The translations under genes and the position numbers were made by a program. A DNA stretch of 64,000 bases from Waddlia chondrophila WSU 86-1044. Its GTDB lineage: Bacteria; Chlamydiota; Chlamydiia; Chlamydiales; CAMCWV01. The stretch covers positions 43,821 through 107,820 of the forward strand of contig CAMCWV010000002.1 in the NCBI GenBank assembly GCA_945882915.1. Direction: 5' to 3'. Of this stretch, positions 11,851 to 62,738 are shown in pieces (the first letter of the stretch is position 1; every line of letters begins with the position of its first letter). The notes under the pieces are model-generated. The model did not search any database and was not told the origin of the DNA. It worked only from the letters and a program-made list of their open reading frames with translations.

Positions 11851-11981
11851 AAATACAACAACCTACCAGGTGAATAAGAGAAGAAATTATAGGGGGCTTA
11901 GGGGTTGGAAGCAAATGAAATTTTAGATTGATCGCTTGCAGACCCAAAGAAAAAAGTTTTTAACGCAAAGACGAGAGAGAG

Positions 11982-12058
11982 ATATATACTCCTCGTAGTT
12001 GAAAACGGGAATTTGGACTAGCGCGAAAGCTCCCGTTTTCAGCTAAGAGGAGTATATA
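11982..12058. repeat. R1 short form
   Basis: atatatactcctcgtagttgaaaacgggaatttggactagcgcgaaagctcccgttttcagctaagaggagtatata. Confidence 0.85.
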
Positions 12059-12075
12059 AATGTTTATTCCGCCAC

Positions 12076-13128
12076 TTATTCCACCCTCTCGTTGCCAGGA
12101 ATGGTGGTGTCATGGAAATCTTTGACTAGCTCAATTGTCGTCGGCCTACTGATAATAATGCTAAAAAGCTCTTCACTATCTTCTGTCACAAGCCGAATGC
12201 ATCCATCACTTTCATACTTACCAACACTTGCCCTGTTCTCTTCAAGAGGGCCCTCAGCTCCAGAAGGAGGAACCCAAGGAGCTCCATGAATGCCAAACCC
12301 TCTAGCCCCAGCTGTCACATCACCAATCTCTTGATCAAATGGAATCCAGCGAGTTCCGAATACGCGGATCATCTCAACTTTCTGATTCTGATAGATGCCT
12401 AAGGCTCCTGGTTTGAAAACGGCAACCCTAGTCCCCAAGGTATACTTACCAAGTGGTGACAGCCCTCCTGAAGGGCGCTTGTCATCAAGGCGACCAAGCC
12501 CCACAGAATAGCGCTTAAGAAGCACTTTTTCGTTAGCTGCGGGGTCTATGTAATAGAACCACATGAGGCAGCGAGAGGTGTCGACGACAAGGTAAAATTG
12601 CAAGTCTTTATCAAGTTTCAATACATTGAAACGATCGCCTTGCTTTACCTCTTGAGTGAGGTAGTCGGCCTTATTGTTTAAACTGCGAGCGATAAAGTGG
12701 CGTGAGGTTTTGTAGTGACGAGCATAATCAGAAAGCCATGCAGCACGTCCTTTTTGCCAATCGACCTGACTTTTATAAGAAATTGTTTCAACAATTGGAA
12801 GCTTTTGACTTCCCGTTGTGAATAGTTCTTGAATGCGATCTGCATCGGGCAAATCCTCAGCGCTTAAAACTTGCTTTACCTGCTCTTGAGTCATCGCCGC
12901 GGCTTCTTTTGATCCATCAGCTTTTGATGCTTTCGCGATCTCTTGCTTGGTCTTTGCTGACCCCTGCTCTAATTGAATCACCTGAGGGCTTTTCGTTTTG
13001 GCAGGTCCACCTGCTTTTGAAGAAGCAACCTGAGCTTCAGCTGGCTTTCCACCTTTTACCCAAGCAGCAACCCCAATGGCTCCAAACAGGACAAGAGTAA
13101 CAATGATTAATAACTTAGGCAGCGACAT
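12076..13128 (-). CDS. L,D-transpeptidase (YkuD) domain protein with N-terminal membrane anchor
   Basis: 350 aa. N-terminal TM segment, then a C-terminal catalytic signature GIHGAPW ... SDGCIRL. Confidence 0.7.
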   Translation of the reverse strand: MSLPKLLIIVTLVLFGAIGVAAWVKGGKPAEAQVASSKAGGPAKTKSPQVIQLEQGSAKTKQEIAKASKADGSKEAAAMTQEQVKQVLSAEDLPDADRIQELFTTGSQKLPIVETISYKSQVDWQKGRAAWLSDYARHYKTSRHFIARSLNNKADYLTQEVKQGDRFNVLKLDKDLQFYLVVDTSRCLMWFYYIDPAANEKVLLKRYSVGLGRLDDKRPSGGLSPLGKYTLGTRVAVFKPGALGIYQNQKVEMIRVFGTRWIPFDQEIGDVTAGARGFGIHGAPWVPPSGAEGPLEENRASVGKYESDGCIRLVTEDSEELFSIIISRPTTIELVKDFHDTTIPGNERVE

Positions 13129-13180
13129 GATTCCTCAATATTTTTAACTTTTAATCATGGATTGACAGATTTTATAGTCG

Positions 13181-13281
13181 ATATATACTCCTCGTAGTTG
13201 AAAACGGGAATTTGGGCTAGCGCGAAAGCTCCCGGGGCTTTGGCGCCGTCCAAGTTCCCATTTTCAACTACGAGGAGTATA
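13181..13281. repeat. R1 long form (about 100-bp near-perfect palindrome)
   Basis: atatatactcctcgtagttgaaaacgggaatttgggctagcgcgaaagctcccggggctttggcgccgtccaagttcccattttcaactacgaggagtata. Preceded by the R5 fragment ttatagtcga. Confidence 0.9.
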
Positions 13282-13289
13282 GTTGGCAA

Positions 13290-14861
13290 CTACCCCAACG
13301 ATCCAATGGTCCAGCGATGATCCTCTAACGTGCCGCTCTCAAAAAAATAGGCAACTAGAAAATCTGCACCCCAATAGTCATCCCCGCCTGCAAGGGGAAT
13401 AACTTCCATTCTACTCCCCTCTTCAGTCCCTTCTTTCTCCCCTACAGCTTCTAAATAGAGATGCGTTTTTTCTCCCTTAAAATCAACACGGCAAGAAGCG
13501 CTTTGATAACGATCGAGGGACTGAGGAAGCAGCCTATATAGGCCATCAACAACGCAGAGTGGAGATTTAACATAAAAAACAAAAGCAAGGTTCTTTAAAT
13601 CTGCAGTTAGACTCAAGAAAGAGGCCGTAATTTCAAGTAACTTTCCCTCATACCGCTGTCTTGATTCTATCCAGGAGAGGTTAACAGCTGGATTGTGAAA
13701 GGTAATAGCAGAACAAGCTACTTCTGGAGGCATTACAAGCCGCGACTTCCCCTGCAAAGAAAACCCAGACTCCTGGCATGTGGATACAATATCAGATTCT
13801 ATAGACCGCCCTAACACAAAGCCCCGTTCAATCCCAAAGCCTCGACAGTCACCCAAAGGGAGGACTTGGGGGCCATAGCTTACAACGCCGACATCGATAC
13901 CTTGAAACGCTCCCATACCGGTATTACCACCAAAAAGTGTCGCGACAACACTGGTTTGAGAATCGCGATGGCCTACCAGTGCTGTGTGGGGATCGTAGAT
14001 TACATTGCCAAAAGAGGCAGAACCAAGAAGCGCAAAAGCTGCTGGAGTTGCTTGAACAGCGTGAATTCCCAGTTGCTCCATCCAAAACGCGCACAAAGTA
14101 AGCCAAGCAGGAATATAAATAGGAGCGTTTTCTTGAAATAGTTGCTTAAGCTGCTCTGCCTGCGCAGATGCAAAAGGAGAAGAAACAGCCATAAACAAGA
14201 GACAGTTTACAGTTAACTGCCTAGCAAGCGTGCTCGACTTCTCTTGGGCAAACAGTCCAAGCAAAGGCCTCGACCAGCCATCTAAAGTGTTTACTTGCCA
14301 CTCTGCAACACGCTGAGCGGCCAGCAAACACTCTTGGTTATCAGAGATTTTTCCAAGAAGAGCCCAGATAAGACCAAGCTCTGCATGAACGGAAGGATGC
14401 GGAAAATTTGACCAACTCCAGTCACCGTTAACTTCAACAGGAGCTGCCCCGCTGGGAAGTAACTCAGGGCGAGGCATTACAACGCTTAAGCCTAGCACAA
14501 AAGCTATAAGGGCAATCATTGCCCCGCTAAGCTGGAATCCTGGAAAATAAGAGCGCTGCCTGATCTCTTGAAACTGTGCAGCAACAGCTGCCTGGTATTT
14601 TTGAAAATCAGGAAAAAGTTTTGTCAGCAAACTTAATGCTAACAAGTGGCGCAGCTGATCTAAGTAGTGTGCTGGATAACAAGCAGGGGTTGTTTCTGAA
14701 ACATGTTCAGGTGAATCTTCAAAGCGGAAAAGAGCCTCGAGAACATGTTCTTCCAAGGACTTCCCTAAAAGGGCTTGAGCTGCAACTCTATCTACTAAAA
14801 GTGCGCCTCCCTCCTGAGCAAGTAACTGTGCTTCAAGACACTGCAACATCCCAGAATACAT
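13290..14861 (-). CDS. hypothetical protein (523 aa)
   Basis: Long ORF with no competing frame. I recognise no diagnostic motif. The helical repeat character in the N-terminal half is only an impression. Confidence 0.5.
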   Translation of the reverse strand: MYSGMLQCLEAQLLAQEGGALLVDRVAAQALLGKSLEEHVLEALFRFEDSPEHVSETTPACYPAHYLDQLRHLLALSLLTKLFPDFQKYQAAVAAQFQEIRQRSYFPGFQLSGAMIALIAFVLGLSVVMPRPELLPSGAAPVEVNGDWSWSNFPHPSVHAELGLIWALLGKISDNQECLLAAQRVAEWQVNTLDGWSRPLLGLFAQEKSSTLARQLTVNCLLFMAVSSPFASAQAEQLKQLFQENAPIYIPAWLTLCAFWMEQLGIHAVQATPAAFALLGSASFGNVIYDPHTALVGHRDSQTSVVATLFGGNTGMGAFQGIDVGVVSYGPQVLPLGDCRGFGIERGFVLGRSIESDIVSTCQESGFSLQGKSRLVMPPEVACSAITFHNPAVNLSWIESRQRYEGKLLEITASFLSLTADLKNLAFVFYVKSPLCVVDGLYRLLPQSLDRYQSASCRVDFKGEKTHLYLEAVGEKEGTEEGSRMEVIPLAGGDDYWGADFLVAYFFESGTLEDHRWTIGSLG

Positions 14862-15689: not shown

Positions 15690-15950
15690 AAGGGTGTCGC
15701 CGCTTAATTACCGCTGCCGCGGTTTAAAAAACAACCACCAACTCCGCGCCCCCTTCTCTTTTCTCTTGTTTTTCTCTCACGTTCTCTCACGTTCTCTCAG
15801 GCCTCTGTGTTTCAAAAAACAGATATTAAGATTTTTGAAACACAGAGGCGTGAGAGAACGTGAGAGAAAGAAAAAGGCCTAAAAATGTGGGTAATGACAA
15901 GGGCTTTGGCGCCGTCCAAATTCCCGTTTTCAACTACGAGGAGTATATAT
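15690..15950. repeat. composite: truncated R7 end + spacer + R3 hairpin + R6 terminus + R1 right arm (inverted copy of part of 3515-3700)
   Basis: R3 hairpin at 15773-15869. R6 terminus aggcctaaaaatgtgggtaatgacaagg at 15878-15900. Then gctttggcgccgtccaaattcccgttttcaactacgaggagtatatat at 15901-15950. Confidence 0.8.
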
Positions 15951-34630: not shown

Positions 34631-34779
34631 ATATCCTCCTCTTAGCTGAAAACGGGAAAAATTATCCTAAACAAGCGCTTGCCCTTTCTAGAAGGTAACC
34701 CTTTAATCGCTACGGGCTTCTTCTCTTTTATTCTTTTGTGCGCTGCCCAAGTTCCCATTTTCAGCTACGAGGAGTATAT
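34631..34779. repeat. R1 copy whose interior is replaced by an R2-flank segment with the R2 hairpin deleted
   Basis: The left arm atatcctcctcttagctgaaaacggga runs into aaaattatcctaaacaagcgcttgccctttctagaaggtaac|cctttaatcgctacgggcttcttctc. The right arm is gttcccattttcagctacgaggagtata. Compare 63655-63957, where the full R2 is present. Confidence 0.75.
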
Positions 34780-34942
34780 ACTCCTCGTAGTTGAAAACGG
34801 GAATTTGGACTAGCGCGAAAGCTCCCGCGGCTGAACGATCGTAAGTGCCTTAGTATTAGAAATACAAAGGGTACTTGCGATCGTTCAGCCCCGGGGCTTT
34901 GGCGCCGTCCAAGTTTCCATTTTCAGCTACGAGGAGTATATA
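34776..34942. repeat. R1 longest form with R8 hairpin (34829-34890) in its centre, abutting the previous R1
   Basis: tatatactcctcgtagttgaaaacgggaatttggactagcgcgaaagctcccgc[ggctgaacgatcgtaagtgcc..gggtacttgcgatcgttcagcc]ccggggctttggcgccgtccaagtttccattttcagctacgaggagtata. Confidence 0.9.
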
Positions 34943-39246: not shown

Positions 39247-39300
39247 CAACGACTAGAACGTGTTTGCTCATATCTCTTAGCGCTGTTATGCTTTCCTAAA

Positions 39301-39466
39301 CTATACTCCGCTTAGCTGAAAACGGGAATTTGGACTAACGCGAAAGCTCCCGCGGCTGAACGATCGCAAGTGCCTTAGTATTAGAAATACAAAGGGCACT
39401 TGCGATCGTTCAGCCCCGGGGCTTTGGCGCCGTCCAAGTTCCCATTTTCAGCTAAGCGGAGTATAT
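39301..39466. repeat. R1 longest form with R8 (39354-39415)
   Basis: ctatactccgcttagctgaaaacgggaatttggactaacgcgaaagctcccgc[R8]ccggggctttggcgccgtccaagttcccattttcagctaagcggagtata. Confidence 0.9.
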
Positions 39467-42823: not shown

Positions 42824-43309
42824 GTGAGAATCGGCGTCCTTAATCAACAATCTTCTCTTCCCATTGACAAGCCCAGTGTCAGGAGTGTCGTGCGCGCTTT
42901 CCTCAAGCTTGAAGAGGTCAGCTGCAATGAAGTTTCCATCCATTTTATAGACACCAAAGAAACTTGCCGCATCCACAACGACTATTTTGGAGACCCCACT
43001 ACCACCGATTGCATGTCCTTTCCTCTCATGACCTTCCCGCTAGAAGACCAAGCTGATGCTTACCGCCTTTTAGGAGACGTCTTTGTCTGCCCAGAGACAG
43101 CACTCAACTACACCGCTGAACATGGCGGAAATCCCTACGAAGAAACCACCCTTTACATCATACATGGGATGCTTCATTTACTTGGCTATGATGACCGAAA
43201 AAAAGCTGATCTCAAAAAAATGAGAGAAGCAGAAGCCAAACACATGAAAAACCTCAAACAACACAATCTATTAATACAAAGACCCAAAGTATATACTCCT
43301 CTTAGCTGA
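42824..43309 (+). CDS. ybeY: rRNA maturation endoribonuclease YbeY
   Basis: GTG start. Zinc motif HGMLHLLGYDD. The last 6 codons and the stop (VYTPLS*) lie inside an R1 repeat. Confidence 0.85.
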   Translation: MRIGVLNQQSSLPIDKPSVRSVVRAFLKLEEVSCNEVSIHFIDTKETCRIHNDYFGDPTTTDCMSFPLMTFPLEDQADAYRLLGDVFVCPETALNYTAEHGGNPYEETTLYIIHGMLHLLGYDDRKKADLKKMREAEAKHMKNLKQHNLLIQRPKVYTPLS

Positions 43310-43362
43310 AAACGGGAATTTGGACGGCGCCAAAGCCCCGTTTTCAGCTAAGAGGAGTATAT
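43290..43362. repeat. R1 short form overlapping the ybeY 3' end
   Basis: tatatactcctcttagctgaaaacgggaatttggacggcgccaaagccccgttttcagctaagaggagtatat. Confidence 0.9.
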
Positions 43363-49311: not shown

Positions 49312-49412
49312 GAGCCGGGGACCTCGTGGAATGAAACGGCCCGAACCAGGTCAGGATCGGAAGGTAGCAGCCTTAAGGGTTTAGTTTTGTGCCTTGAGAT
49401 AATCTCCGGCTC
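49312..49412 (+). ncRNA. ffs: signal recognition particle RNA (4.5S, small bacterial type)
   Basis: Domain IV motif ccaggtcaggatcGGAAggtagcagcc (compare E. coli CAGGUCAGGUCCGGAAGGAAGCAGCC). The terminal helix pairs gagccgggga with tctccggctc. Followed by a T7 run at 49413-49419. Confidence 0.8.
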
Positions 49413-49421
49413 TTTTTTTCT

Positions 49422-52089: not shown

Positions 52090-52163
52090 TTATAGTCGAT
52101 TAAATCTCAAATGATAGGCTGAGACCGTTGTCTCAGCCTATCATTTGAGATTTAATCGACTAT
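52090..52163. repeat. R5 complete palindrome
   Basis: tatagtcgattaaatctcaaatgataggctgagac cgtt gtctcagcctatcatttgagatttaatcgactata. Sits between convergent genes. Confidence 0.9.
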
Positions 52164-52765
52164 AAAAACGGTGCTAGCTCCTCAGCAGAGATAGCTCCTT
52201 GACGTAAGATGGCCCATTTGTTTTGAGTGAAGCTCAAGACCGTGGAAGGGGTCCCTTTTCCTGTTTCGCGTCCCCCTAAGTCCAGGCCATCCAAAATAGG
52301 AAAATCATCCCCAAAAATACTTTCCACTTCGGTAGCTGTGAGCGCTGGAGGCTCTCCAGACAGATTTGCTGACGGAGCCACAAGCGGTCCTGTCTGTTCT
52401 AAAAGAGCAAGCACTGCGTCGTGGTTTGGGACGCGAAACCCCGCTGTCGAAAGGCCGGCACGAACAATCTCCAGGACAGATCCCTTTTTAACAGGCAGGG
52501 CAAGTGTTAATCCTCCTGGCCAAAAACAAGATGTAAGCTCCTTAAAATAAAGGGGCAGATCATCTGCAAATAAAGAAATTTGATCAGCGCTTGCAAGAAG
52601 AGTCACCAAAGGATTGCTGGAAGGGCGCCCTTTAATAATAAAAAGCTTCTCTACGGCAGCCTGGTCTGTTGCTAGCGCTGCAAGGCCATACACGGTATCT
52701 GTAGGGATAGCCACCACCTCACCCTGAAGAAGCAATTCAGCAGCCCTGGAAAGCGTAATAATCAT
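52160..52765 (-). CDS. tsaC: L-threonylcarbamoyladenylate synthase (YrdC/TsaC family)
   Basis: 201 aa. PTDTVYGLAA, SANLSGEP. Confidence 0.85.
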   Translation of the reverse strand: MIITLSRAAELLLQGEVVAIPTDTVYGLAALATDQAAVEKLFIIKGRPSSNPLVTLLASADQISLFADDLPLYFKELTSCFWPGGLTLALPVKKGSVLEIVRAGLSTAGFRVPNHDAVLALLEQTGPLVAPSANLSGEPPALTATEVESIFGDDFPILDGLDLGGRETGKGTPSTVLSFTQNKWAILRQGAISAEELAPFL

Positions 52766-52775
52766 GAATTAACCT

Positions 52776-52940
52776 GTACTCCTCTTAGTTGAAAATGGGG
52801 ATTTGGGCTAGCGCGAAAGCTCCCGCGGCTGAACGATCGTAAGTGCCTTAGTATCAGAAATACAAAGGGCGCTTGCGATCGTTCAGCCCCAGGGCTTTGG
52901 CGCCGTCCAAGTTCCCATTTTCAGCTAAGAGGAGTATATA
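52776..52940. repeat. R1 longest form with R8 (52827-52888)
   Basis: gtactcctcttagttgaaaatggggatttgggctagcgcgaaagctcccgc[R8]ccagggctttggcgccgtccaagttcccattttcagctaagaggagtatata. Confidence 0.9.
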
Positions 52941-52979: not shown

Positions 52980-53255
52980 TTAGCCGCGGCAGTCGACGAG
53001 GATACCGGTGTCGCGATCTGTTAGCAAGCGATCATCACTCCCTGCTGCAGAAAAGAAAGGGGCCCCATCTTGCTTTAAGCGGGGCTGGCCTTGATTATTT
53101 TGGTAATAGAGAGAGGGGTCTCTTTGAGTGGAGTTGAAGGCTTCTTGAGTCTGCCAATAGCGCCCAGCTTTCTCTACAGGCTCCACAGTCGTTGAGCGCT
53201 GCTGGGTTATCTTTTTGACTTCGTCTGAAATATCCCCAATGACGTTAGCAGTCAT
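52980..53255 (-). CDS. hypothetical small polar protein (91 aa) immediately downstream of fliA
   Basis: The start context agaggagtatATG is identical to that of fliA. The sequence is Q/D/S/T-rich with few hydrophobic residues (disorder-like). Confidence 0.45.
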   Translation of the reverse strand: MTANVIGDISDEVKKITQQRSTTVEPVEKAGRYWQTQEAFNSTQRDPSLYYQNNQGQPRLKQDGAPFFSAAGSDDRLLTDRDTGILVDCRG

Positions 53256-53298
53256 ATACTCCTCTTTTATTACTAACTTACCTTTACTATAACTAATT

Positions 53299-54099
53299 TT
53301 ACATCATATTTGCAAACTCAGAAACAAACCACTGAAGGCGACCACGCATACGGTGGAGTGCCTTGCTGTGGATCTGAGAAACGCGGGACTCGCTAATCCC
53401 CATTAATTGACCTATCTCCTTAAGCATCAAGTTCTCGTAGTAATAAAGAACCAGAACTGTTCGTTCCTGCTCGGGCAGTTCCGTAACTGCTTTTTCCAAA
53501 AGTTGGTTAAACTCATTGCGGTCTGCCATGTCGTAACTGGTCAGCGCTTTGTCATCAGCTATGCGATCTGCCATCGAGACACTCTCTGGATCGTCAGTAA
53601 CCGTTGCATCCAAAGGAATCATCGTAGCAGGACGAACCCGGTGGTAGAGATCTTCGAGCTCTTCAGCCGAAATCCCCAAACGCTTTGAAAGCTCTCCGTC
53701 GGTCGGCTCCCTGCCCAGCTCATGCTGCAGTGCAAGCTGTGCCTTCCCTATTTGGTTAGCCTTCTGATGGACGCTGCGCGGAACCCAGTCCAAAGAGCGC
53801 ATCTCATCAATAATCGCCCCTTTAATCAATAAAATCGCGTAGGTTTCGAACTTATTCTTCATTGTAGGGTCATACTTCTCGATGGCCTTGATCAATCCCA
53901 AAACACCCGTGGAGTACATATCGTCTATCTTAACATGAGAAGGAAGACCAACAGCAAGACGACCAGCAACGTACTTTACGAGATGCAAGTACCTTGTAAT
54001 CAACTCATCGCGCAATCCTAGCACCTGAGTTTTTTTATATTCTTGCCAAAGCTCATTAGGGTGTCCGAGCTTCTTATTTTTGTCGTTTGTCTGTTTCAT
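53299..54099 (-). CDS. fliA: RNA polymerase sigma-28 factor (FliA/WhiG family)
   Basis: 266 aa. Region 2 YLHLVKYVAGRL / GVLGLIKAIEKYDP, the FliA hallmark LDWVPRS, and the region 4.2 HTH LKEIGQLMGISESRVSQIHSKAL. Confidence 0.9.
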   Translation of the reverse strand: MKQTNDKNKKLGHPNELWQEYKKTQVLGLRDELITRYLHLVKYVAGRLAVGLPSHVKIDDMYSTGVLGLIKAIEKYDPTMKNKFETYAILLIKGAIIDEMRSLDWVPRSVHQKANQIGKAQLALQHELGREPTDGELSKRLGISAEELEDLYHRVRPATMIPLDATVTDDPESVSMADRIADDKALTSYDMADRNEFNQLLEKAVTELPEQERTVLVLYYYENLMLKEIGQLMGISESRVSQIHSKALHRMRGRLQWFVSEFANMM

Positions 54100-54263
54100 A
54101 TACTCCTCTTAGCTGAAAACGGGAATTTGGACTAGTGCGAAAGCTCCCGCGGCTGAACGATCGTAAGTGCCTTATTATTAGAAATACAAAGGGCACTTGC
54201 GATCGTTCAGCCGCGCGGCTTTGGCGCCGTCCAAATTCCCGTTTTCAACTACGAGGAGTATAT
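54098..54263. repeat. R1 longest form with R8 (54151-54212), abutting the fliA start codon
   Basis: On the minus strand the element ends ...gctaagaggagtatATG, where ATG is the fliA start. Confidence 0.9.
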
Positions 54264-54288
54264 TTTCCACCAGATTTCTTAAGGTGTT

Positions 54289-54651
54289 CTAAGACGGATC
54301 AACTTTAGTCGCAGCTGCTACAGGCTTTTGTTTGCCCTCAGGGGGCATCTCCGCTGTCTTTTTCGGCTTGACTACCTGATCGATCCGTTCAATTTCTGCT
54401 ACATTAAGCTCTTTGCGGCGCTCTTCTTTTAACTTCTCGCCCTGCTTAGAATCTTCCATCGGCTTGACAATTCCAAGATAAAGATGCTTGAAAACCAACT
54501 GACTTAAAATCCCTGTCACCCACATCGTTGCAAAAGAATAAATCACCGTTGTGAGCAATGTTTGTTGTGTTAGCAAGCTAACAACAGCTACAAGCACAGT
54601 GCAAAATAGCGTGAATAGAAAAACAAGAAGAAAAACAAAACGCTTATCCAT
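54289..54651 (-). CDS. small membrane protein with two TM helices and Lys/Glu-rich tail (120 aa)
   Basis: MDKRFVFLLVFLFTLFCTVLVAVVSLL and VIYSFATMWVTGILSQLVF helices. It occupies the position between flhF and fliA. Confidence 0.5.
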   Translation of the reverse strand: MDKRFVFLLVFLFTLFCTVLVAVVSLLTQQTLLTTVIYSFATMWVTGILSQLVFKHLYLGIVKPMEDSKQGEKLKEERRKELNVAEIERIDQVVKPKKTAEMPPEGKQKPVAAATKVDPS

Positions 54652-54664
54652 TCAACCCTCCACG

Positions 54665-56542
54665 TTACGTTCTAGCCATCTTTCGCAAAGAATTTAACTC
54701 TGGCGCATTGTGCTGCACGAGCAAAGCTCTTGCGATTTCTTGCCCATCTGCAATCTTTAAGTCCTCGGGAATGCGCGTGCCAAGGGTGATATAGCTGATG
54801 GGCATCTTTGTCTTTTCACAAACATTTACAAGAATTCCGTGAGAGATCGTTTCGTCTAACTTTGTAAACACAAGGCTTTCAGGATTTAAACGAGAAAATT
54901 GCTGGACAATGCCGTAAACGTCAAGATCCTTTGTCGTCGCGCTGACAGCGAGATAAACATGAAGATCGTCTATGACTCCAAGGATGTCGCCGAGAGAGTC
55001 TATCTGTTGCCATTGATATTGATTTGTTCCTGAGGTGTCCACAAGGATCAGCTCCTTATCGCTCCAGGCAGCGATCTGAGAGCTGAGAACGTGGCCAGTA
55101 GCTGCTACCTCGCAGTCTATGCCATACTTAATGGCCAGCCCCTTAATTTGAGCTTGCCCACCCATCTTATTTACATCCAGGCTAATAATCCCGACTCTCT
55201 TTTGGAGCTGAATGGCATACTGAACAGCAAGCTTCATAAGGGTTGTCGTTTTGCCAACTCCAGAAGGCCCTACAAGCGTGGCGATGGTCGCCTGCCCGTA
55301 TTTAAGGCAAAGGGGGCCGGTTGTTTTAACACGCAGGGCAATTTCGTGCTTAAGCGCATTTAAACGTTGCGTCCGATCTTCGACCGGCGTCTCCATATCG
55401 ACTTTGCCAAAACGACTCTCTAGAACCTCTTCTATCTCAAGGGCGATTGCATGAGAAACCCCCTTAGAGACAAGAAATTCGACGCTTCTATTTAATTCGC
55501 TTCTGCTGGCTCCGCTTCTGTTAAAGCGAGATTCGTTACTCTTCTCGTTATTCCCTTCGTTATTCCCCCGCCCATTTTGAGCCTCCCTAATCTCATTTCG
55601 GATTAGCTGACGAAGCTGCTCGATTTTAGGAAGCTCTGCAGATTCTTTTGCTTCTGAAGCGCCTGTCTGAGGAGCCACTTGCGGGGCTGAAGAGCTCAAA
55701 AGATCACCTAAACGCTCTTTTAGTCGGCGCCCAAATTGAGAGACCTCTGAGTTATTGTTGTTAGAAGGAGGCTCTTGAAAGGTTCTCTGTTCTAACCTGG
55801 GCTCAGGAGCACCCGGACTTCCCTTATCTTTAAGCTGACGAAGCAACTTTGCCTCAGAGCTAATGGTGAGGCTGTCTTCTGACGAAGTCGTTGCTGTTGT
55901 CCCTGGAAAATTAGGAGATCCTCTAGCAGAAGGACTATTAGAAGAACTAGCCATTTGAGCTCTATTTTTGCTGTGGCGAGGGTCTCCATAGGTGTAGGAT
56001 GACTCGCTAATTTTGGAAGGCGCCGCTCCTAAAGGGACTTCTTTACGAGCCTCTCTGGAAACGTTCTCTCTGGAAGACTCTTCTCTGGACGGCACTGCTT
56101 TTAATGCCATTTCTTTTGCCCCCTCTTTACGCGAAGCTGCCGAAGTAAAGGCAACCTCATCTCCCGCATGCCCTAAAAGGCGTTTTAAGTCATCTAGGTT
56201 GTTTTGCAAATGCTCTAAAGAGGGTTTCTTTGTCGTCATAATCTTCAGGTTTGAAGCAGGCGTTTTTTTTGCTAAAGCAGAAGAAGGCTCATGTGAGCGC
56301 TCATTTATCTGACTTTCCCTTGCCTTCCCCTCTCTTTCTTTTTGCTTTTTCTGATTGTAAGAGCGGAGCTCTTCCTCTTCAATAGCAGCCGTTACTTCGA
56401 CCTTTTCAGAAGCAAACAGGGCCTTTAGCCCCATCTCCTTTATGTTGCGTGTTGTGAGCACCACAGCATCGGGACCAAGCTCCTGCTCAATCATCTTTTG
56501 AGCATCGTCTAGACTGTCGGCTATGTACTTCTTAATGAGCAT
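54665..56542 (-). CDS. flhF: flagellar biosynthesis GTPase FlhF-like (SRP-type GTPase) with long low-complexity linker
   Basis: N-terminus MLIKKYIADSLDDAQKMIEQELGPDAVVLTTRNI (FlhF B-domain pattern). C-terminal G domain with GPSGVGKTTT, DTSG and TKLDE. Confidence 0.8.
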   Translation of the reverse strand: MLIKKYIADSLDDAQKMIEQELGPDAVVLTTRNIKEMGLKALFASEKVEVTAAIEEEELRSYNQKKQKEREGKARESQINERSHEPSSALAKKTPASNLKIMTTKKPSLEHLQNNLDDLKRLLGHAGDEVAFTSAASRKEGAKEMALKAVPSREESSRENVSREARKEVPLGAAPSKISESSYTYGDPRHSKNRAQMASSSNSPSARGSPNFPGTTATTSSEDSLTISSEAKLLRQLKDKGSPGAPEPRLEQRTFQEPPSNNNNSEVSQFGRRLKERLGDLLSSSAPQVAPQTGASEAKESAELPKIEQLRQLIRNEIREAQNGRGNNEGNNEKSNESRFNRSGASRSELNRSVEFLVSKGVSHAIALEIEEVLESRFGKVDMETPVEDRTQRLNALKHEIALRVKTTGPLCLKYGQATIATLVGPSGVGKTTTLMKLAVQYAIQLQKRVGIISLDVNKMGGQAQIKGLAIKYGIDCEVAATGHVLSSQIAAWSDKELILVDTSGTNQYQWQQIDSLGDILGVIDDLHVYLAVSATTKDLDVYGIVQQFSRLNPESLVFTKLDETISHGILVNVCEKTKMPISYITLGTRIPEDLKIADGQEIARALLVQHNAPELNSLRKMART

Positions 56543-56628
56543 AATCTTATTTATCTCGTAGCTATTCTAACACTTTTAGAAAAAATCGGATACCGGCACG
56601 AAAGGAGCAATCTTAGAGCCGCTTCTTG

Positions 56629-58716
56629 TCACATCAATACTTCACTTGATATCACACCAACAGCTCTCAATTCCACTTCAGATACAAGTTCGTTAACTGA
56701 CAGGACAGGAAGCCTTGGAAAGCTACGTTCTATAAGCTGCCGGAAGTGGCGCCGAACAGGAGCTGAGGTGAGAACAACACTCTGCACCCCTTTTTTTGTC
56801 CCTTCATCAACAAGGCGATTTAACTCGTCTGCAATCTTACGAATAGTAGCCGGACGCAAAACAACCCGGCTGCCATAGTCGTTTTTCTGAATGCTTTCGG
56901 TAATCATCTGATCAACCTTTGAATCTAAAGTAACAACATGCACAACCTTGCCATCGCCCGCATACTGCCTGGAAATCGTACGGGCAAGGCCCTGACGGAC
57001 ATATTCGGTTAGGATGTCTGTATCTGTTGTATGAACGCTTTGATCGGCAAGAATCTCAAGAATTGTCACAATATCGCGAATAGGAAGGCGTTCTTTAAGA
57101 AGGTTTTGAAGAACCTTAACCACCTGGCCTAAGTTGAGTTGATTGGGAATGAGCTCCTCAATAACAGCTGACGCGTAAGCCTTCGCGTTTTCTATAAGAC
57201 GGGCCACTTCTTGACGGTTGAGCAGCTCAAATGCGTGCGCATGGATTACTTCTGTTAAATGAGTCGCCAGAACAGAAAGCGTGTCAACCACTGTATATCC
57301 AAAAAGCTCTGCCTGCTGCTTCTGCGCTGCAGATATCCAAACAGCCGGCAGCCCAAAGGCAGGCTCAATTGTTTTTACGCCTGCAAGAGGCTTGTCAACA
57401 TGACCTGGGTTCATGGCAAGGTAACTATCAAGATAAAGAGTCCCCGTAGCCACTTCAAGACCCTTGATCTTGATCGCATAAGCTTCTGCTGCAAGCAACA
57501 TGTTGTCTCTAATTCTTATCGGAGGGACAACAATTCCAAGCTCTGAGGCAATCTGACGGCGTATTACAGTGATGCGGCTGAGAAGGTCGCCCCCTTGCGA
57601 CTGATCGACAAGAGGAATGAGCCCATAGCCAAGCTCAATTTCCATAGGATCAACAAAAAGAACCTTTTCCACTTGCTCAGAAGGGGCTGCTGCAGAAGGG
57701 TTTGCCGTTGTCATTGCCGCGTCAAGCTTTTGTAACTCTTTGCCGCTCGTCTTCCACAAAACAAATGCGTAAATCCCCAAAGTTAATGCAATGGGGATCA
57801 TGACAAGCATTGGCATGCCCGGAACAAAACTCATTAAAACAACAATACTTGCTGTGATAAACAACACGCGGGGGTTATTAAAAACCTGCCTCTGGAGCGT
57901 ATCGCCCATGTTCTCTTTTGCAGAGGCCCGTGTCACAATAATACCGGCACCTACAGAAATGAGCAGAGCAGGAATTTGTGTTACAAGGCCATCACCCACC
58001 GTCAACACCATGTATGTATTGAGTGCTTGCTGCCATGGCATTCCCTTCATAGCCACCCCAATAACAAACCCGCCGATGATGTTCACGATGATAATGATGA
58101 TCCCGGCGATCGCATCTCCTCGAACGAACTTCGAAGCCCCATCCATAGCCCCGTAAAAGTCGGCTTCGGCAGAAATCTTTTCTCTACGAAGCTTAGCTTC
58201 GTGCTCATCGATGATCCCTGCATTCAAGTCTGCATCAATTGACATCTGTTTGCCGGGCATGGCATCCAACGTAAATCTAGCAGCAACCTCGGCAATACGC
58301 CCAGAACCCTTGGTAATAACGATGAAGTTGATGACGGTTAGAAGGATAAAGATGATCAACCCAACAGCCTGGTTTCCTCCCGTAACAAACTCCCCGAATG
58401 TTTGAATGATATTCCCTGCCTGCGCTTCAGTAAGAATCATCCTCGTTGAGGCGACGCTAACACCCAAACGGTAGAGAGTAAGAAAGAGGAGTAAAGAGGG
58501 AAAGGCGCTAAACTCAAGTACCTCCTCAACATAAAGTGTGAGGAGAAGCGTCATTACTGCCATGAGGATGCTAATGCACAAAAAGACGTCAAGAAGGATG
58601 GGGGGAACAGGGATGATCAGAAGTAGGACCATGGAGATAACAGCCACAGCCAAAATGACATCGCTATGCTTGCGAATAACGCCTAACGACTCAGAAACGG
58701 AATCGAGCATAGTCAT
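56629..58716 (-). CDS. flhA: type III export gate protein, flagellar FlhA-type
   Basis: 695 aa. [36 protein letters not shown] and [22 protein letters not shown] match the flagellar FlhA versions of these blocks as I recall them (injectisome SctV: [35 protein letters not shown]). Confidence 0.8.
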   Translation of the reverse strand: [695 protein letters not shown]

Positions 58717-58735
58717 TAGATTACAATCCTTCTAG

Positions 58736-58838
58736 ATATACTCCTCTTAGCTGAAAACTGGAATTTGGGCTAGTGCGAAAGCTCCCGGGGCTTTCGCACT
58801 AGCCCAAATTCCAGTTTTCAGCTAAGAGGAACATATAC
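58736..58838. repeat. R1 long form, essentially perfect palindrome, in the flhB-flhA spacer
   Basis: atatactcctcttagctgaaaactggaatttgggctagtgcgaaagctcccggggctttcgcactagcccaaattccagttttcagctaagaggaacatat. Confidence 0.9.
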
Positions 58839-58850
58839 CATTCAAAGGAA

Positions 58851-59975
58851 TTATTCCTCCTTCTTTGTCTTTTTTTTCGTTTGAAGCTTAGATCCCAAAG
58901 CGCGCTTCCCGATCTTCTCGTTCAACCGATAAACATAAGCCAGCACTTCTGCAATAGGATGATAAAAGTTAGCTGGCACATACGAGCCAACGTCTACCGC
59001 CTGATATAAAGGGCGCGCAAGCTCGCGATTTTCAACAACTGGGATCTTATGCTTTTCTGCCAGCTCCCTAATTGCTAGAGCCATCTTTCGCGCTCCTTTA
59101 GCAACGCAAAGTGGAGCTGCCATTTTTGTTGAGTCGTACTTCACAGCAATTGCGTAGTGAGTAGGGTTGGCAATAACGACATCAGCCCTCGGCACGTTGC
59201 TCTTCATACGCACAATTGCCATCTCGTGCATCATGCTGCGGAGCTTAGACTTAACCTGCCCATCCCCTTCTGTTTGTTTTCTTTCGTCTTTGACCTCTTG
59301 CCTTGTCATCTTCATATCTTGAAGAAACTTCCATTTCTGGAACATGTAATCTATTCCCCCCACAAGAAGAAGGAAAAATGCGATTACTATCCCAAGCCAA
59401 AATGACTTCCACGTCATAAAAGCAACAATCTGCCTGGCGTTTGCCTCCATAAGCCTGGAAATATCGGGCATCACCGCAAAAATCAAGACATAGGCCACGA
59501 CACCGATGACCGCCAGCTTTGAAAGACCTATAAACAACCGGGCAAAAGCTTGGATGTTAAAAAACTTTTTATAATTAGAAATGTCAAAGAAATTAAGACG
59601 CTCCCAATTGGGGGCCAACGAGGTAACCGAAAGAACAAACCCCACCTGATAAATATTAATGCCCAAACTCACCAAAAACAATCCGAGAAAGAAAGGGCCA
59701 AGGAGCGAAGCTACAAAAAAGACTCCTTCTTTTAACCAAAACACCACCGACTCAGGGCCGTCAAAAGGCTCCTGAAGGTGCTGGAACGTGCCAATCATAA
59801 GACTTGCTAGCTTCTCATAAATGGTTGCCGAGAAAAAGAAGAGCATCAGCATGCCTGAAAGGAGCAACGTTCCTGACACAAGCTCTTGAGACTTGGCAAC
59901 CCTCCCCTTTTCACGCCCTTCCTGCAGCTTCTTTTCAGTTGGCTGTTCGGTTCTGTCTTGAAAGTCTTCAGCCAC
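58851..59975 (-). CDS. flhB: type III export switch protein, FlhB/SctU family (FlhB favoured by context)
   Basis: 374 aa. N-terminus MAEDFQDRTEQPTEKKLQEGREKGRVAKSQEL, four TM segments, autocleavage motif NPTH (VIANPTHYAIAV). FlhB versus SctU cannot be settled by eye. Confidence 0.65.
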   Translation of the reverse strand: MAEDFQDRTEQPTEKKLQEGREKGRVAKSQELVSGTLLLSGMLMLFFFSATIYEKLASLMIGTFQHLQEPFDGPESVVFWLKEGVFFVASLLGPFFLGLFLVSLGINIYQVGFVLSVTSLAPNWERLNFFDISNYKKFFNIQAFARLFIGLSKLAVIGVVAYVLIFAVMPDISRLMEANARQIVAFMTWKSFWLGIVIAFFLLLVGGIDYMFQKWKFLQDMKMTRQEVKDERKQTEGDGQVKSKLRSMMHEMAIVRMKSNVPRADVVIANPTHYAIAVKYDSTKMAAPLCVAKGARKMALAIRELAEKHKIPVVENRELARPLYQAVDVGSYVPANFYHPIAEVLAYVYRLNEKIGKRALGSKLQTKKKTKKEE

Positions 59976-60003
59976 TCTAGCCTCTTTATTCTACCGCTGG
60001 TTG

Positions 60004-60103
60004 TATATACTCCTCGTAGTTGAAAACGGGAATTTGGACTAGCGCGAAAGCTCCCGGGGCTTTGGCGCCGTCCAAGTTCCCATTTTCAGCTAAGAGGCGT
60101 ATA
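60004..60103. repeat. R1 long form
   Basis: tatatactcctcgtagttgaaaacgggaatttggactagcgcgaaagctcccggggctttggcgccgtccaagttcccattttcagctaagaggcgtata. Confidence 0.9.
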
Positions 60104-60206
60104 GTTAAAAAACAGGGTGAGTTGCAAGAATTTTCTGTACACTTCCACAGCAAAAAGAAAGTATTAAAGATTTTCACCACAGAGACGTGGGAGAACACAG
60201 AGAGAA

Positions 60207-60610
60207 ATATACTCCGCTTAACTGAAAACGGGAATTTGGGCTAGCGCGAAAGCTCCCGCGGCTGAACGATCGCAAGTGCCTTATTATTAGAAATACAAAG
60301 GGCACTTGCGATCGTTCCGCCCCGGGGCTTTGGCCTTGTCATTACCCACATCTTAAAACAACCAATTTGCCCTAAACAAGCGGTTGTCCTCTCCAGAAGG
60401 TAACGTGGACCGCCTAAGGTCTGGGATCTAACCTGTTACCAAACGAACGTTTGTTGTAGACTCAATCTGGAATCCCAGACCTTAGGCGGCCCACGTTACC
60501 TTGCTGCATAAGGCAGTCATGTTTTTGAGCAAATCGGCTATCCCAAAATGTGGGTAATGACAAGGGCTTTCGCGCAGTCCAAATTCCCGTTTTTAGCTAA
60601 GCGGAGTATA
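60207..60610. repeat. composite: R1 with R8 (60260-60321) and an R6 element (60334-60565, itself containing R2 at 60389-60503) inserted in its right half
   Basis: ...cccggggctttgg|ccttgtcattacccacat ... atgtgggtaatgacaagg|gctttcgcgcagtccaaattcccgtttttagctaagcggagtata. Confidence 0.85.
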
Positions 60611-60620
60611 GAGAGAGAGG

Positions 60621-60655
60621 AAAGCGGGAAATGCCACTTCAATCGTAAGGCTGCC
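60621..60655. repeat. R9 motif (inverted copy of 22685-22720)
   Basis: The reverse complement of aaagcgggaaatgccacttcaatcgtaaggctgcc is ggcagccttacgattgaagtggcatttcccgcttt. Compare 22685 ggcagccttacgattgaagtggcattgcccgctttc. Confidence 0.8.
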
Positions 60656-60899
60656 TAAACGAAACTGCTTTACGCTGTACTAGCCGCAGGTTGGGGTGTA
60701 AACTTTGTGCTGTTTTTTATCCTAACAGCCGAAGGCTGATCCTGCCTATCTTGTTCTTGCATTTCTCTCACTCCTCTTGCTTCTCTGCTTGCTCATTTTA
60801 TAAAGAAAATGGTACCATTTAACACTTATAACTTGCTGATCCAGTGCGCGGCAAACCCCATCCTTTAGGGCGGGGTCAAGAGCGCATTACGCGGCTAGA

Positions 60900-61315
60900 C
60901 TAGTGAGGGGTTTGTTGCTGTTCAATGTACTGACGAATAAGTGCAATTGGGGCTCCACCGCAACTACCAGCAAAATAACTGGGTGACCACAAAGCATTGC
61001 CCACAACTTATTGCGAATACTAAGGTATTTCTTTTTTCGAATTAAGTGACTTGACACACCCTTTAAACTGTTTACTAATTTAGAAACAGCTGCTTTAGGA
61101 GGGTAATTCACTAGCAAATGGACGTGGTCGTCTTCTCCATCGAATTCTATAAGTTGAGCTCCAAAGTCTGAGCAAACACTAGAAAAGATTGGATGCATTG
61201 TGTCTAGAATTTCTCTTGTAAAAACTTCTCGGCGGTATTTTGTAACAAAGACCATGTGAACATGCATTAGAAAAACACAATGTCTACCATGCCTAATATC
61301 GTTGTTTTTTTTCAT
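60900..61315 (-). mobile_element. tnpA: IS200/IS605-family Y1 transposase gene tnpA, disrupted by a 1-nt frameshift
   Basis: HGRHCVFLMHVHMVFVTKYRREVF and DDHVHLLV (HUH) motifs. After ...RNKLW the annotated frame reads AMLCGHPVILL, but the +2 frame reads GNALWSPSYFAGSCGGAPIALIRQYIEQQQTPH* (the canonical C-terminus with the catalytic Tyr region), ending at 60900. The frameshift is near 60999-61003. A hairpin lies at 60841-60885. Confidence 0.8.
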
Positions 61316-61351
61316 AATGTGACCGATGCAAAAGGTTTAAACGAGGTTTAA

Positions 61352-61936
61352 ATGTCTCTATTCTCTATCACCATTACGCTGTTTCTGCTAATGGACCCCT
61401 TTGGGAACGTGCCCATTTTCATGTCACACCTTCACAGGCTAGACCCCAAAAGACAGCGAAAAGTCATTTGCCGCGAGCTGCTCTTTGCCCTCGGGATCAT
61501 GTTTATATTCCTCTATTTAGGCGAAATGACTTTAGAGCTCCTCGATGTCTCTCGCTCATCAGTACAAGTTGCCGGAGGGCTCATCCTCTTCCTCATTGCT
61601 CTAAAAATGATCTTCCCACCGAAAGAAGAGCCTGCTACAGACGCTCCTTACAGAGAGCCATTCATCGTTCCTCTTGCCGTCCCTTTTGTCGCAGGCCCGG
61701 GCGCACTTACAGCCATCATGTTGTATGCAGGGCAATCAACACCTTACTATCTTGTCATTAGCGCAATCGTTTTAGCTTGGCTTTTTACAACACTTTTACT
61801 ACTTGGCGCCCCCTATATTCAACGTGTGTTAGGGGAAAAAGGAATGAAGGCGTGTGAGATTCTTATGGGTCTTATCCTAACTCTAATGGCCGTGCAAATG
61901 TTTCTAGCCGGCATTAAGTCTTTCATGATGGAGTAG
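61352..61936 (+). CDS. MarC-family (UPF0056) integral membrane protein
   Basis: 194 aa, six hydrophobic segments, LLMDPFGNVPIF N-terminal motif. Confidence 0.8.
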   Translation: MSLFSITITLFLLMDPFGNVPIFMSHLHRLDPKRQRKVICRELLFALGIMFIFLYLGEMTLELLDVSRSSVQVAGGLILFLIALKMIFPPKEEPATDAPYREPFIVPLAVPFVAGPGALTAIMLYAGQSTPYYLVISAIVLAWLFTTLLLLGAPYIQRVLGEKGMKACEILMGLILTLMAVQMFLAGIKSFMME

Positions 61937-61945
61937 TGCCCCCGA

Positions 61946-62734
61946 ATGGCTTTGCAAGAAAACAATATAAATCACAAAAATATCAAGCTCACCATCGCCT
62001 ACGATGGGACTAACTACCTCGGGTGGCAAAAAACAATCACCGGTCCCAGTATTGAAGAGTCTCTACAAATAGTCCTTGAAAGGATTTTACAAAAAGCCGC
62101 GCCTTTGCAAGCCGCCAGCAGAACAGATGCGGGCGTTCACGCCGTAGGCCAGGTAGTCAATTTTTTTACAGAAAAAAACTCGTTAGACTTAAAAAGGCTC
62201 CGCCTCGCCTTAAACGGGCTGCTTCCCAAAGATATTGTAGTGCTCAGCGCCGAAGAAGCCCCCCATAAGTTCCACCCAACACTTGATTGCTCTGGCAAAA
62301 CCTATACTTATTTTGTCTGCACCAATGAAGTGCAATTCCCAGAGCATCGCAACTTTTCCTGGCACTGCCCACATGTTTTGAATATTGAAGCCATAAAAGA
62401 GGCCGCAACTCACCTCATAGGAACGCGCGACTTTGCAGCCCTTTGCAACGAGCTCAGCACGCGAGACTATACCCATACAATCCGAACTGTTAAAAGTATT
62501 AACATCACAATGTTCGGAAAGGGACGCCTTCGTTTTGAAATTACAGGAGACCACTTTCTTTACAAAATGGCGCGCAATATCACAGGTCTGCTAATCTATG
62601 TAGGCAACAACAAGATCGATGCCAAGCAAGTCCCAAGTATTCTACTTGGGCGGGAGCGAAAAGAAGCGGGCATCACCGCCCCGGCCCACGGCCTTGCTCT
62701 TGAACAGGTACACTACCTGCCAATTGGAGTTTAA
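61946..62734 (+). CDS. truA: tRNA pseudouridine(38-40) synthase
   Basis: 262 aa. YDGTNYLGWQ, and RTDAGVHA with the catalytic Asp. Confidence 0.9.
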   Translation: MALQENNINHKNIKLTIAYDGTNYLGWQKTITGPSIEESLQIVLERILQKAAPLQAASRTDAGVHAVGQVVNFFTEKNSLDLKRLRLALNGLLPKDIVVLSAEEAPHKFHPTLDCSGKTYTYFVCTNEVQFPEHRNFSWHCPHVLNIEAIKEAATHLIGTRDFAALCNELSTRDYTHTIRTVKSINITMFGKGRLRFEITGDHFLYKMARNITGLLIYVGNNKIDAKQVPSILLGRERKEAGITAPAHGLALEQVHYLPIGV

Positions 62735-62738
62735 ATTT

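Follow-up and report, generated by a model that had tools for sequence, protein, structure and literature searches.

A flagellar-type flhB-flhA-flhF-fliA locus in a chlamydial genome: one more copy of an ancestral operon

We analyzed a stretch of 64,000 nucleotides of DNA from an uncultured chlamydial bacterium (the window; contig CAMCWV010000002.1 of assembly GCA_945882915.1, positions 43,821 to 107,820). Between positions 52980 and 59975 it carries six co-directional open reading frames (ORFs) on the minus strand, which encode proteins of 374, 695, 625, 120, 266, and 91 aa. The first five correspond to FlhB, FlhA, an FlhF-like GTPase, a small protein with two transmembrane (TM) helices, and the sigma factor FliA. 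Judged by its sequence, this is a vertically inherited and already described chlamydial flagellar locus, that is, a further species' copy and not a new system, because the same gene order and the same flanks are found in chlamydial lineages, including the single-amplified genome (SAG) AB-751-O23. We favor the explanation that in this species the locus contributes to a complete flagellum whose genes are dispersed, to which we give a probability of roughly 55%. An earlier annotation made from the letters of the DNA (the sequence-only reading) had delimited the six ORFs; its coordinates are exact, and the motifs that it quoted (NPTH, DTSG, TKLDE, DWVPRS, and the other blocks) are all present in the translations.

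Export-gate proteins and GTPase

The two gate proteins were classed as flagellar or injectisome with curated NCBIfam equivalog models and their cut-offs, together with a ranking of scores against structures in the Protein Data Bank (PDB). The 374-aa protein matches Bac_export_2 over its full length (profile positions 1-335 of 335, residues 6-348, E=8e-115). It scores 362.9 bits with the FlhB model TIGR00328 (cut-off 349.25) and 297.7 bits with the SctU model TIGR01404, which is below the cut-off of 358. Against the PDB, FlhB chains give 186-211 bits and SpaS gives 94; FlhB ranks above SpaS, YscU, and EscU. The autocleavage motif NPTH lies in the C-terminal domain of the translation, within VIANPTHYAIAV. 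The gene starts with GTG, preceded by the ribosome-binding site AAAGAGG.

The 695-aa protein matches FHIPEP over its full length (E=5e-263). It scores 844.9 bits with the FlhA model TIGR01398 (cut-off 772.1) and 638.4 bits with the SctV model TIGR01399 (cut-off 692.25). With PRK05910 ("type III secretion system protein"), which we take to be a model of the short, divergent FlhA of the Chlamydiaceae, it reaches 305 bits against a cut-off of 670. The full-length protein gives 560, 519, and 477 bits with FlhA structures and 445 and 364 bits with SctV structures. Its C-domain gives 346 bits with FlhA-C of B. subtilis, 116 bits with chain 6wa6 ("Low calcium response locus protein D"), presumably the chlamydial CdsV, and 50-105 bits with YscV, EscV, InvA, SsaV, and MxiA. 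At the positions of D456, F459, and T490 of Salmonella FlhA, which we assume to form the chaperone-docking dimple, the residues of the window protein are E, F, and T, the first two of which are shared by B. subtilis FlhA. The equivalog cut-offs and the PDB ranking agree, and the assignment of both proteins to the flagellar FlhB and FlhA rather than to the injectisome SctU and SctV, as the sequence-only reading had proposed, is supported at the level of sequence. In published trees the FlhA of AB-751-O23, which is an orthologue of the window FlhA, groups with that of flagellated bacteria (PMC5604735).

The 625-aa protein consists of a conserved N-terminal segment, a long disordered linker, and an NG domain at residues ~350-610. 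Pfam finds a GTPase domain of the SRP54 type (signal recognition particle, SRP) at residues 420-608 (E=5e-32). The best NCBIfam model is TIGR03499 (FlhF) with 145.9 bits, compared with 63.7 bits for FtsY and 50.6 bits for Ffh. Against the PDB, the protein reaches 90.3 and 83.8 bits with the FlhF structures 8r9r and 2px0, 41 bits with the best FtsY, and 40 bits with the best SRP54. By both measures the protein is nearest to FlhF and not to FtsY, Ffh, or SRP54, which bears out the earlier assignment, and it is divergent. Because FlhF is the best-scoring family and yet the score stays below the equivalog cut-off of 174.15, we regard the protein as a divergent FlhF-like orthologue.

The N-terminal motif M.IKKY.A...ELGP.A.ILTTR and the GTPase motifs G1 (GPSGVGKTT), G3 (DTSG), and G4 (TKLDE) are invariant among the chlamydial FlhF orthologues. 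The N-terminal segment and the NG domain also align to the FlhF proteins that follow flhA in dozens of non-chlamydial loci. The position of the gene directly after flhA is the same as in ~40 loci of other bacteria. In the G2 motif the arginine is replaced by lysine (DVNK at residues ~455-460 vs DTYR in B. subtilis), and the motif varies among the FlhF proteins of chlamydial relatives (D-SKR, DNSK, VNSPH). The loss of the G2 arginine, together with the absence of flhG from the chlamydial loci (see below), suggests a GTPase cycle that is independent of FlhG or slow.

The opposite classification, in which the genes are an injectisome sctU/sctV pair with an FtsY-like GTPase that was mislabeled as flagellar, is close to untenable. 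The SctU and SctV scores lie below their cut-offs and the FlhB and FlhA scores lie above theirs, although the families are homologous and the SctU and SctV models still give 298 and 638 bits. All known chlamydiae do carry an injectisome (PMC8242063). However, the C-domain of the window FlhA sides with B. subtilis FlhA and not with 6wa6, the scores with FlhF structures are twice those with FtsY and SRP54, the genes share synteny with the flagellar locus in AB-751-O23, and the order flhB-flhA-flhF-fliA is that of the flagellar loci of ~40 other bacteria.

Sigma factor and small proteins

The 266-aa protein scores 254.8 bits with the FliA_WhiG model TIGR02479 (cut-off 189.6), and Pfam finds sigma-70 regions 2, 3, and 4. 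It is a sigma-28 factor of the FliA/WhiG family, as the sequence-only reading had recognized. Among single models, PRK05911 ("RNA polymerase sigma factor sigma-28") comes first, with 292.9 bits and a cut-off of 378; we take this model to be derived from Chlamydia.

The 120-aa protein has two TM helices, as had been read from the translation. It has no family in Pfam or NCBIfam; assignment to a known family was rejected, as there were only spurious Pfam matches of the TM type. Its own family comprises 33 clusters among 1.84 billion representatives, all of 63-138 aa, with two TM helices and the kept motifs IVKP.E and NL.EVE.ID. Orthologues occupy the same slot in the related loci L002, L005, L007, and L018 and in AB-751-O23, and the gene lies between flhF and fliA in every examined chlamydial locus that extends that far. 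A tblastn search found no copy in ~45 loci of other bacteria; here the gene was found only in chlamydial loci. The slot after flhF holds a MinD/ParA ATPase with the motifs DQAxxLR and GKGGVGK, namely FlhG, in 10/10 sampled non-chlamydial loci. Neither the window nor any chlamydial locus contains flhG. A ParA-like gene beyond the left edge of the window was considered as a candidate for FlhG and rejected, because its sequence is Mrp/ApbC-like.

The 91-aa ORF is doubtful as a real gene. It has no Pfam match even at E<=10, no NCBIfam family, and no similarity to an ORF of 109 aa in the corresponding place of L002, and no ORF is present at this position in L005 and L007. On these grounds it was also rejected as FlgM, the anti-sigma-28 factor.

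Gene order and origin

The nearest FlhA proteins, with 66-72% identity, derive from SAGs and genomes assembled from metagenomes (MAGs) of Chlamydiales, among them SAG AH-315-G07 (mislabeled "Simkania negevensis"), a TARA Waddliaceae MAG, and SAG AB-751-O23. The nearest non-chlamydial FlhA proteins, from Firmicutes and Calditrichaeota, are 53-55% identical. The order map/marC, flhB-flhA-flhF-small TM gene-fliA-Sua5 recurs, whole or in part, in chlamydial lineages: in AB-751-O23, the TARA Waddliaceae MAG, a 2.86-Mb contig, and two more chlamydial genomes. A Sua5-family gene also follows fliA in L002, L005, and L007. In the relatives that retain the upstream junction, namely L002, L005, L006, and AB-751-O23, map lies before flhB together with marC and/or truA.

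The sequence-only reading had expected fliPQR upstream of flhB and had taken the repeats and the IS200 remnant found there for signs of erosion. Relatives with an upstream contig lack fliPQR at this place as well. Because the same genes precede flhB in these relatives, the map/marC/truA-flhB junction is ancestral, and the lack of fliPQR upstream is therefore an ancestral arrangement and not the result of erosion. The idea that the repeats mark decay of the locus is not supported either: they belong to a genome-wide family, and a SAG that was published with a near-complete set of flagellar genes has the same junction.

Publications have described flagellar gene sets of environmental chlamydiae from 2017 onwards (PMC5604735, PMC8242063, PMC9816063). 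AB-751-O23 was described with 28 flagellar genes, and flagella were proposed to be ancestral in chlamydiae (PMC5604735). Semi-complete to complete sets are known from more lineages, and a motile chlamydial ancestor has been reconstructed (PMC8242063 supplement, PMC9816063, 10.1101/577767).

This background also bears on a recent horizontal transfer of the cluster from a flagellated bacterium, without any chlamydial history, which we consider very improbable. The IS200 copy and the mobile-looking repeats beside flhB would fit a transfer, as would the identity of 53-55% that the nearest non-chlamydial FlhA still reaches. However, the cluster has the same GC content (46-47%) as the remaining window, the repeats are genome-wide and not specific to the locus, and the same housekeeping flanks are found in chlamydial lineages in which FlhA is only 66-72% identical. 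The 2-TM gene occurs only in chlamydial loci (0 of ~45 other loci), and chlamydial flagellar proteins are monophyletic and ancestral in published trees (PMC5604735, PMC9816063).

Variation within the species was read from contigs of NCBI assembly GCA_947446165.1 and of several ENA assemblies, which are 99.7-100% identical to the window. The single-nucleotide polymorphisms in flhB are 3 synonymous and 0 non-synonymous; those in flhA are 5 synonymous and 1 non-synonymous. Taken together (8 vs 1; P ~1e-4 under neutrality), they indicate purifying selection on flhB and flhA. FlhF has three amino-acid changes, all in the disordered linker, and fliA shows no change of either kind. The four long ORFs are all intact. 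The 91-aa ORF shows 0 synonymous and 2 non-synonymous changes and an in-frame 3-bp indel.

Complete or reduced flagellum

In the favored explanation, the locus would be the chlamydial version of the flhB-flhA-flhF-(2-TM)-fliA operon, inherited from a flagellated chlamydial ancestor. FlhB and FlhA would be two of the membrane proteins in the type III export gate of the flagellum, with FlhA as the docking ring for substrates and chaperones and FlhB as the predicted autocleaving specificity switch. The FlhF-like protein would be the SRP-type GTPase that marks the site of flagellum assembly, and FliA would be the sigma-28 factor that turns on late genes such as flagellin. For the remaining components (fliPQR, fliI, fliF, and the rod, hook, filament, and motor), the genes would lie elsewhere, given that flagellar genes are dispersed in chlamydiae. 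This mechanism draws on the established roles of the families. We infer that in this species the cluster is expressed and assembled into a working flagellar export apparatus.

Relatives show what a flagellin locus looks like in these lineages. Genes for a protein of the phospholipase D (PLD) family and for flagellin lie 2-6 kb past Sua5 in L002 and L007. The PLD-family gene divergently adjoins the flagellin gene in four lineages (L002, 20306-22085; L007, 16419-19281; L017, 504-3409; L068, 4448-7384). A promoter of the sigma-28 type, TCAAGTT-N13-CCGA[AT]A, is present 40-90 nt upstream of fliC in 3/3 chlamydial flagellin loci examined (L002, 21316-21343; L007, 17529-17556; L017, 1674-1701), and in each it is the sole perfect promoter match. 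In another notation, the site reads TCAAGTT[CTG]-N12-[TA]CCGA[TA]A. These sites fit a working link from FliA to flagellin in those organisms. As further observations on the PLD gene, in L008 it abuts flhF without flagellin, and in AB-751-O23 it lies at the end of the locus.

Several results weigh against a complete flagellum in the species of the window. No other flagellar gene is present in the 64 kb, as judged by Pfam for 41 other ORFs, or in the 10 kb past each window edge, where the genes called on same-species contigs were labeled with Pfam. The statement in the sequence-only reading that no structural flagellar genes are nearby thus holds, also by tblastn for flagellin and PLD. The PLD-flagellin pair is missing from its syntenic place, and neither 116 flagellin homologues, chlamydial ones included, nor the neighboring PLD gene gave a tblastn match in the window. 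The strict sigma-28 pattern that had been suggested for a promoter search, TAAAGTTT-N11-12-GCCGATAA, gave only near-chance matches. A relaxed scan (TCAAGTT/TAAAGTT-N-CCGAWA), which did find the flagellin promoters of the relatives, gave no site with <=1 mismatch in the window or the same-species flanks (~84 kb). Among ~27 database flagellins of the chlamydial type, none could be tied to the species; the two candidates looked up, P0137 (GC 55%) and P0157 (GC 37%), belong to other lineages, and neither is accompanied by the palindromic repeat of this genome. In L008, a 2.26-Mb contig of a presumed chlamydial lineage with an FlhA 59-60% identical, only flhA-flhF is kept (10001-14402), without flhB, the 2-TM gene, fliA, or flagellin beside the pair, and so reduced or partial states exist. 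The FlhF-like score below its cut-off and the replaced G2 arginine belong on the same side.

The locus might accordingly be a relic in which the genes for the filament and other structural parts were lost, and FlhB, FlhA, FlhF, the 2-TM protein, and sigma-28 were kept for a use other than motility. Such a use could be an alternative secretion gate or developmental regulation, as a step towards the flhA-fliA state of the Chlamydiaceae. We take this possibility seriously, with odds of about one in three. It draws on the absence of flagellin, PLD, and any other flagellar gene from the ~84 kb when relatives hold PLD-fliC past Sua5, on the lack of a sigma-28-type promoter in the same ~84 kb, on the lack of a database flagellin with the multi-sample footprint of the species, and on the more reduced L008. 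In C. trachomatis, flhA (CT060) and fliA (CT061) are consecutive and are treated as type III secretion system (T3SS) or regulatory genes (PMC10597470), and the FlhA of the Chlamydiaceae has been argued by Collingro in 2017 to act outside a flagellum (PMC5604735). The CT060-CT061 pair looks like the end-point of the same reduction.

Yet the roles of FlhB in the hook-to-filament switch and of FlhF in placement are specific to flagella, both genes are intact, and the polymorphism of flhB is only synonymous. The window FlhA is of the canonical flagellar type and not of the divergent Chlamydiaceae type. Flagellar genes are known to be dispersed in chlamydiae, so that their absence from 84 kb says little. 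The search for a flagellin rested on a word index, which a divergent flagellin may escape. A complete flagellum with dispersed genes remains the explanation that we favor.

A more specific form of reduction, which we hold to be rather doubtful, is that the species is a living intermediate: it would have kept FlhB and FlhA, an FlhG-independent FlhF with an altered catalytic G2 motif, the 2-TM protein as a chlamydia-specific partner, and sigma-28, with purifying selection on all of them, and would have lost flagellin and the filament. If true, a flagellar type III core would have been repurposed for secretion or polarity unrelated to motility, and this would account for the puzzling flhA-fliA pair found in pathogenic Chlamydia.

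Other features of the window

The coordinates of the cluster, its synteny anchors, and the repeats are collected in Table 1. The truA and map genes were identified on same-species contigs by the Pfam families PseudoU_synth_1 and SEC-C+Peptidase_M24. The remaining window holds only housekeeping genes (the 41 other ORFs comprise those of >=150 aa and the IS200 ORF), including serS, tyrS, groES/EL, bamA, ompH, lpxD, dnaN, leuS, rnr, ybeY, menaquinone genes, Sua5, marC, truA, and map.

Table 1. Features of the flagellar locus and its surroundings (window positions).
Feature	Position	Strand	Basis or remark
flhB, export-gate switch protein, 374 aa	58851-59975	minus	TIGR00328, Bac_export_2, PDB ranking
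flhA, export-gate protein, 695 aa	56629-58716	minus	TIGR01398, FHIPEP, PDB ranking
flhF-like SRP-type GTPase, 625 aa	54665-56542	minus	best model TIGR03499, below cut-off
2-TM protein, 120 aa	54289-54651	minus	no Pfam/NCBIfam family; kept in chlamydial loci
fliA sigma-28 (FliA/WhiG family), 266 aa	53299-54099	minus	TIGR02479; sigma-70 regions 2, 3, 4
Polar ORF, 91 aa, doubtful or species-specific gene	52980-53255	minus	no family match
Sua5/YciO/YrdC-family gene, downstream synteny anchor, non-flagellar	52160-52765	minus	PF01300, E=1.6e-49
marC, truA, map, upstream synteny anchors, divergent from flhB	61352-63614	plus	Pfam MarC
IS200-type tnpA pseudogene	60887-61315	minus	Y1_Tnp profile positions 1-92 of 121 only
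Repeats upstream of flhB (region 59976-61351)	60004-60106, 60203-60372, 60364-60412, 60545-60610		
Repeat in flhB-flhA spacer	58735-58837		palindromic; families D1, D2, D4
Repeat in 2-TM gene/fliA spacer	54094-54263		family D3, 170 nt
Repeat in 91-aa ORF/Sua5-YrdC spacer	52770-52939		family D3, 170 nt
Other repeat sites (examples)	5356-5427, 13182-13284, 34772-34941, 39297-39466, 43291-43362		

The palindromic intergenic repeats (72-170 nt) are very abundant, with ~20 sites in the window. The window has 30 copies of their core, GAAAACGGGAATTTGG, compared with 0.09 expected, and three spacers within the cluster also hold copies. The repeat is absent from the checked loci of relatives and has 0 matches in JGI metagenomes. 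These repeats also interrupt metagenome assemblies of the species: L011 at window position 54169 and L015 at 60108. A loss of fliA in L011 and an altered region upstream of flhB in L015 were considered and rejected, as identity breaks inside dispersed repeats; the breaks are probably assembly joins and not true rearrangements. A second, unrelated palindromic family (TTCTCTCACGTTCTCTCACGCCTCTGTGTTTCAAAAA...) has 3-4 intergenic copies (3549-3641, 15782-15874, 22734-22826).

The IS200 element upstream of flhB is dead, as had been noted. A 1-nt deletion at a G-run near 61000 puts the segment with the catalytic Tyr, WSPSYFAGSCGG, out of frame, and WSPSYFAGSCGGAPIALIRQYIEQQ is legible in the other frame past this run. 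The insertion and the 1-nt lesion are common to other assemblies of the species.

Elsewhere in the window, a csrA gene (91 aa, starting MLVLTRK; ~4673-4948, minus) adjoins a YbjN-family gene (4119-4643, minus); its identity is given by a Pfam CsrA match in the same-species contig L009. In other bacteria CsrA is a partner of FliW or CesT in flagellar or T3SS regulation. The csrA-YbjN pair may have a regulatory role; no FliW was seen. Tandem paralogues with a weak match to DUF3419 lie at 20567-21532 and 21493-22527 (plus) and share a 300-nt stretch of 71% identity. At 49314-49413 (plus) lies a gene for the bacterial small SRP RNA, which reaches 49.7 bits (gathering score 40); a gene for tRNA-Asn is found at 28331-28402 (plus).

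Comparison with known systems

The injectisome proteins SctU and SctV (CdsU and CdsV in chlamydiae) are homologous membrane proteins of the same fold, with NPTH in the U subunit. The window proteins differ in falling below the SctU and SctV cut-offs, and the C-domain is three times nearer to FlhA than to 6wa6. Their genes are linked to flhF and fliA and not to copN and scc, the usual neighbors of cdsU and cdsV.

The flhB-flhA-flhF-flhG-fliA loci of other bacteria (~40 metagenomic loci) share the gene order and the families FlhB, FlhA, FlhF, and FliA; this order is also found in polar flagellates and in the fla/che operon of Bacillus. In contrast, the chlamydial loci have no flhG and carry a 2-TM protein of ~100-135 aa in its place. 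The window FlhF differs from those of the other bacteria by the lysine that replaces the G2 arginine and by a much longer linker, and fliPQR is missing upstream.

Pathogenic Chlamydia keep a few cryptic flagellar genes, including flhA beside the gene of a sigma-28 factor, and their role is debated. The Chlamydiaceae homologues are CT060 (flhA), CT061 (fliA), CT717 (fliI), and CT719 (fliF). The proximity of flhA and the sigma-28 gene is common to both, and the window FliA scores best with PRK05911. The window FlhA, however, is canonical and of full length, passing TIGR01398 and falling far short of the PRK05910 cut-off. Compared with the CT060-CT061 pair (PMC10597470), the window adds flhB, flhF, and the 2-TM gene, which supports the view of the sequence-only reading that more is present here than in the relic of the Chlamydiaceae. 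Environmental chlamydiae with fuller flagellar loci show the origin of such relics.

The closest counterparts are the flagellar sets of marine and environmental chlamydiae, described from the SAGs AB-751-O23, AG-110-M15, and AG-110-P3 (PMC5604735) and extended since (PMC8242063, 10.1101/577767). The window is from another species (46% GC), in which an IS200 pseudogene and palindromic repeats specific to that species are inserted around and within the cluster. Its cluster has no flagellin nearby, and only this part of the flagellar set is seen. The window FlhA is orthologous and 67% identical to that of AB-751-O23, and the order map-marC, flhB-flhA-SRP54 GTPase-~130-aa ORF-sigma factor is identical in the two. 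The window thus adds one more species with the ancestral flhB-flhA-flhF-x-fliA operon. Three smaller points are sharpened as well, which are the 2-TM protein in an operon that lacks flhG, an FlhF without the G2 arginine, and a canonical fliC promoter of the sigma-28 type in three chlamydial lineages. Flagella are currently seen as ancestral in the Chlamydiae and as differentially lost; this view is unchanged, and both loci are read as the ancestral chlamydial flagellar locus.

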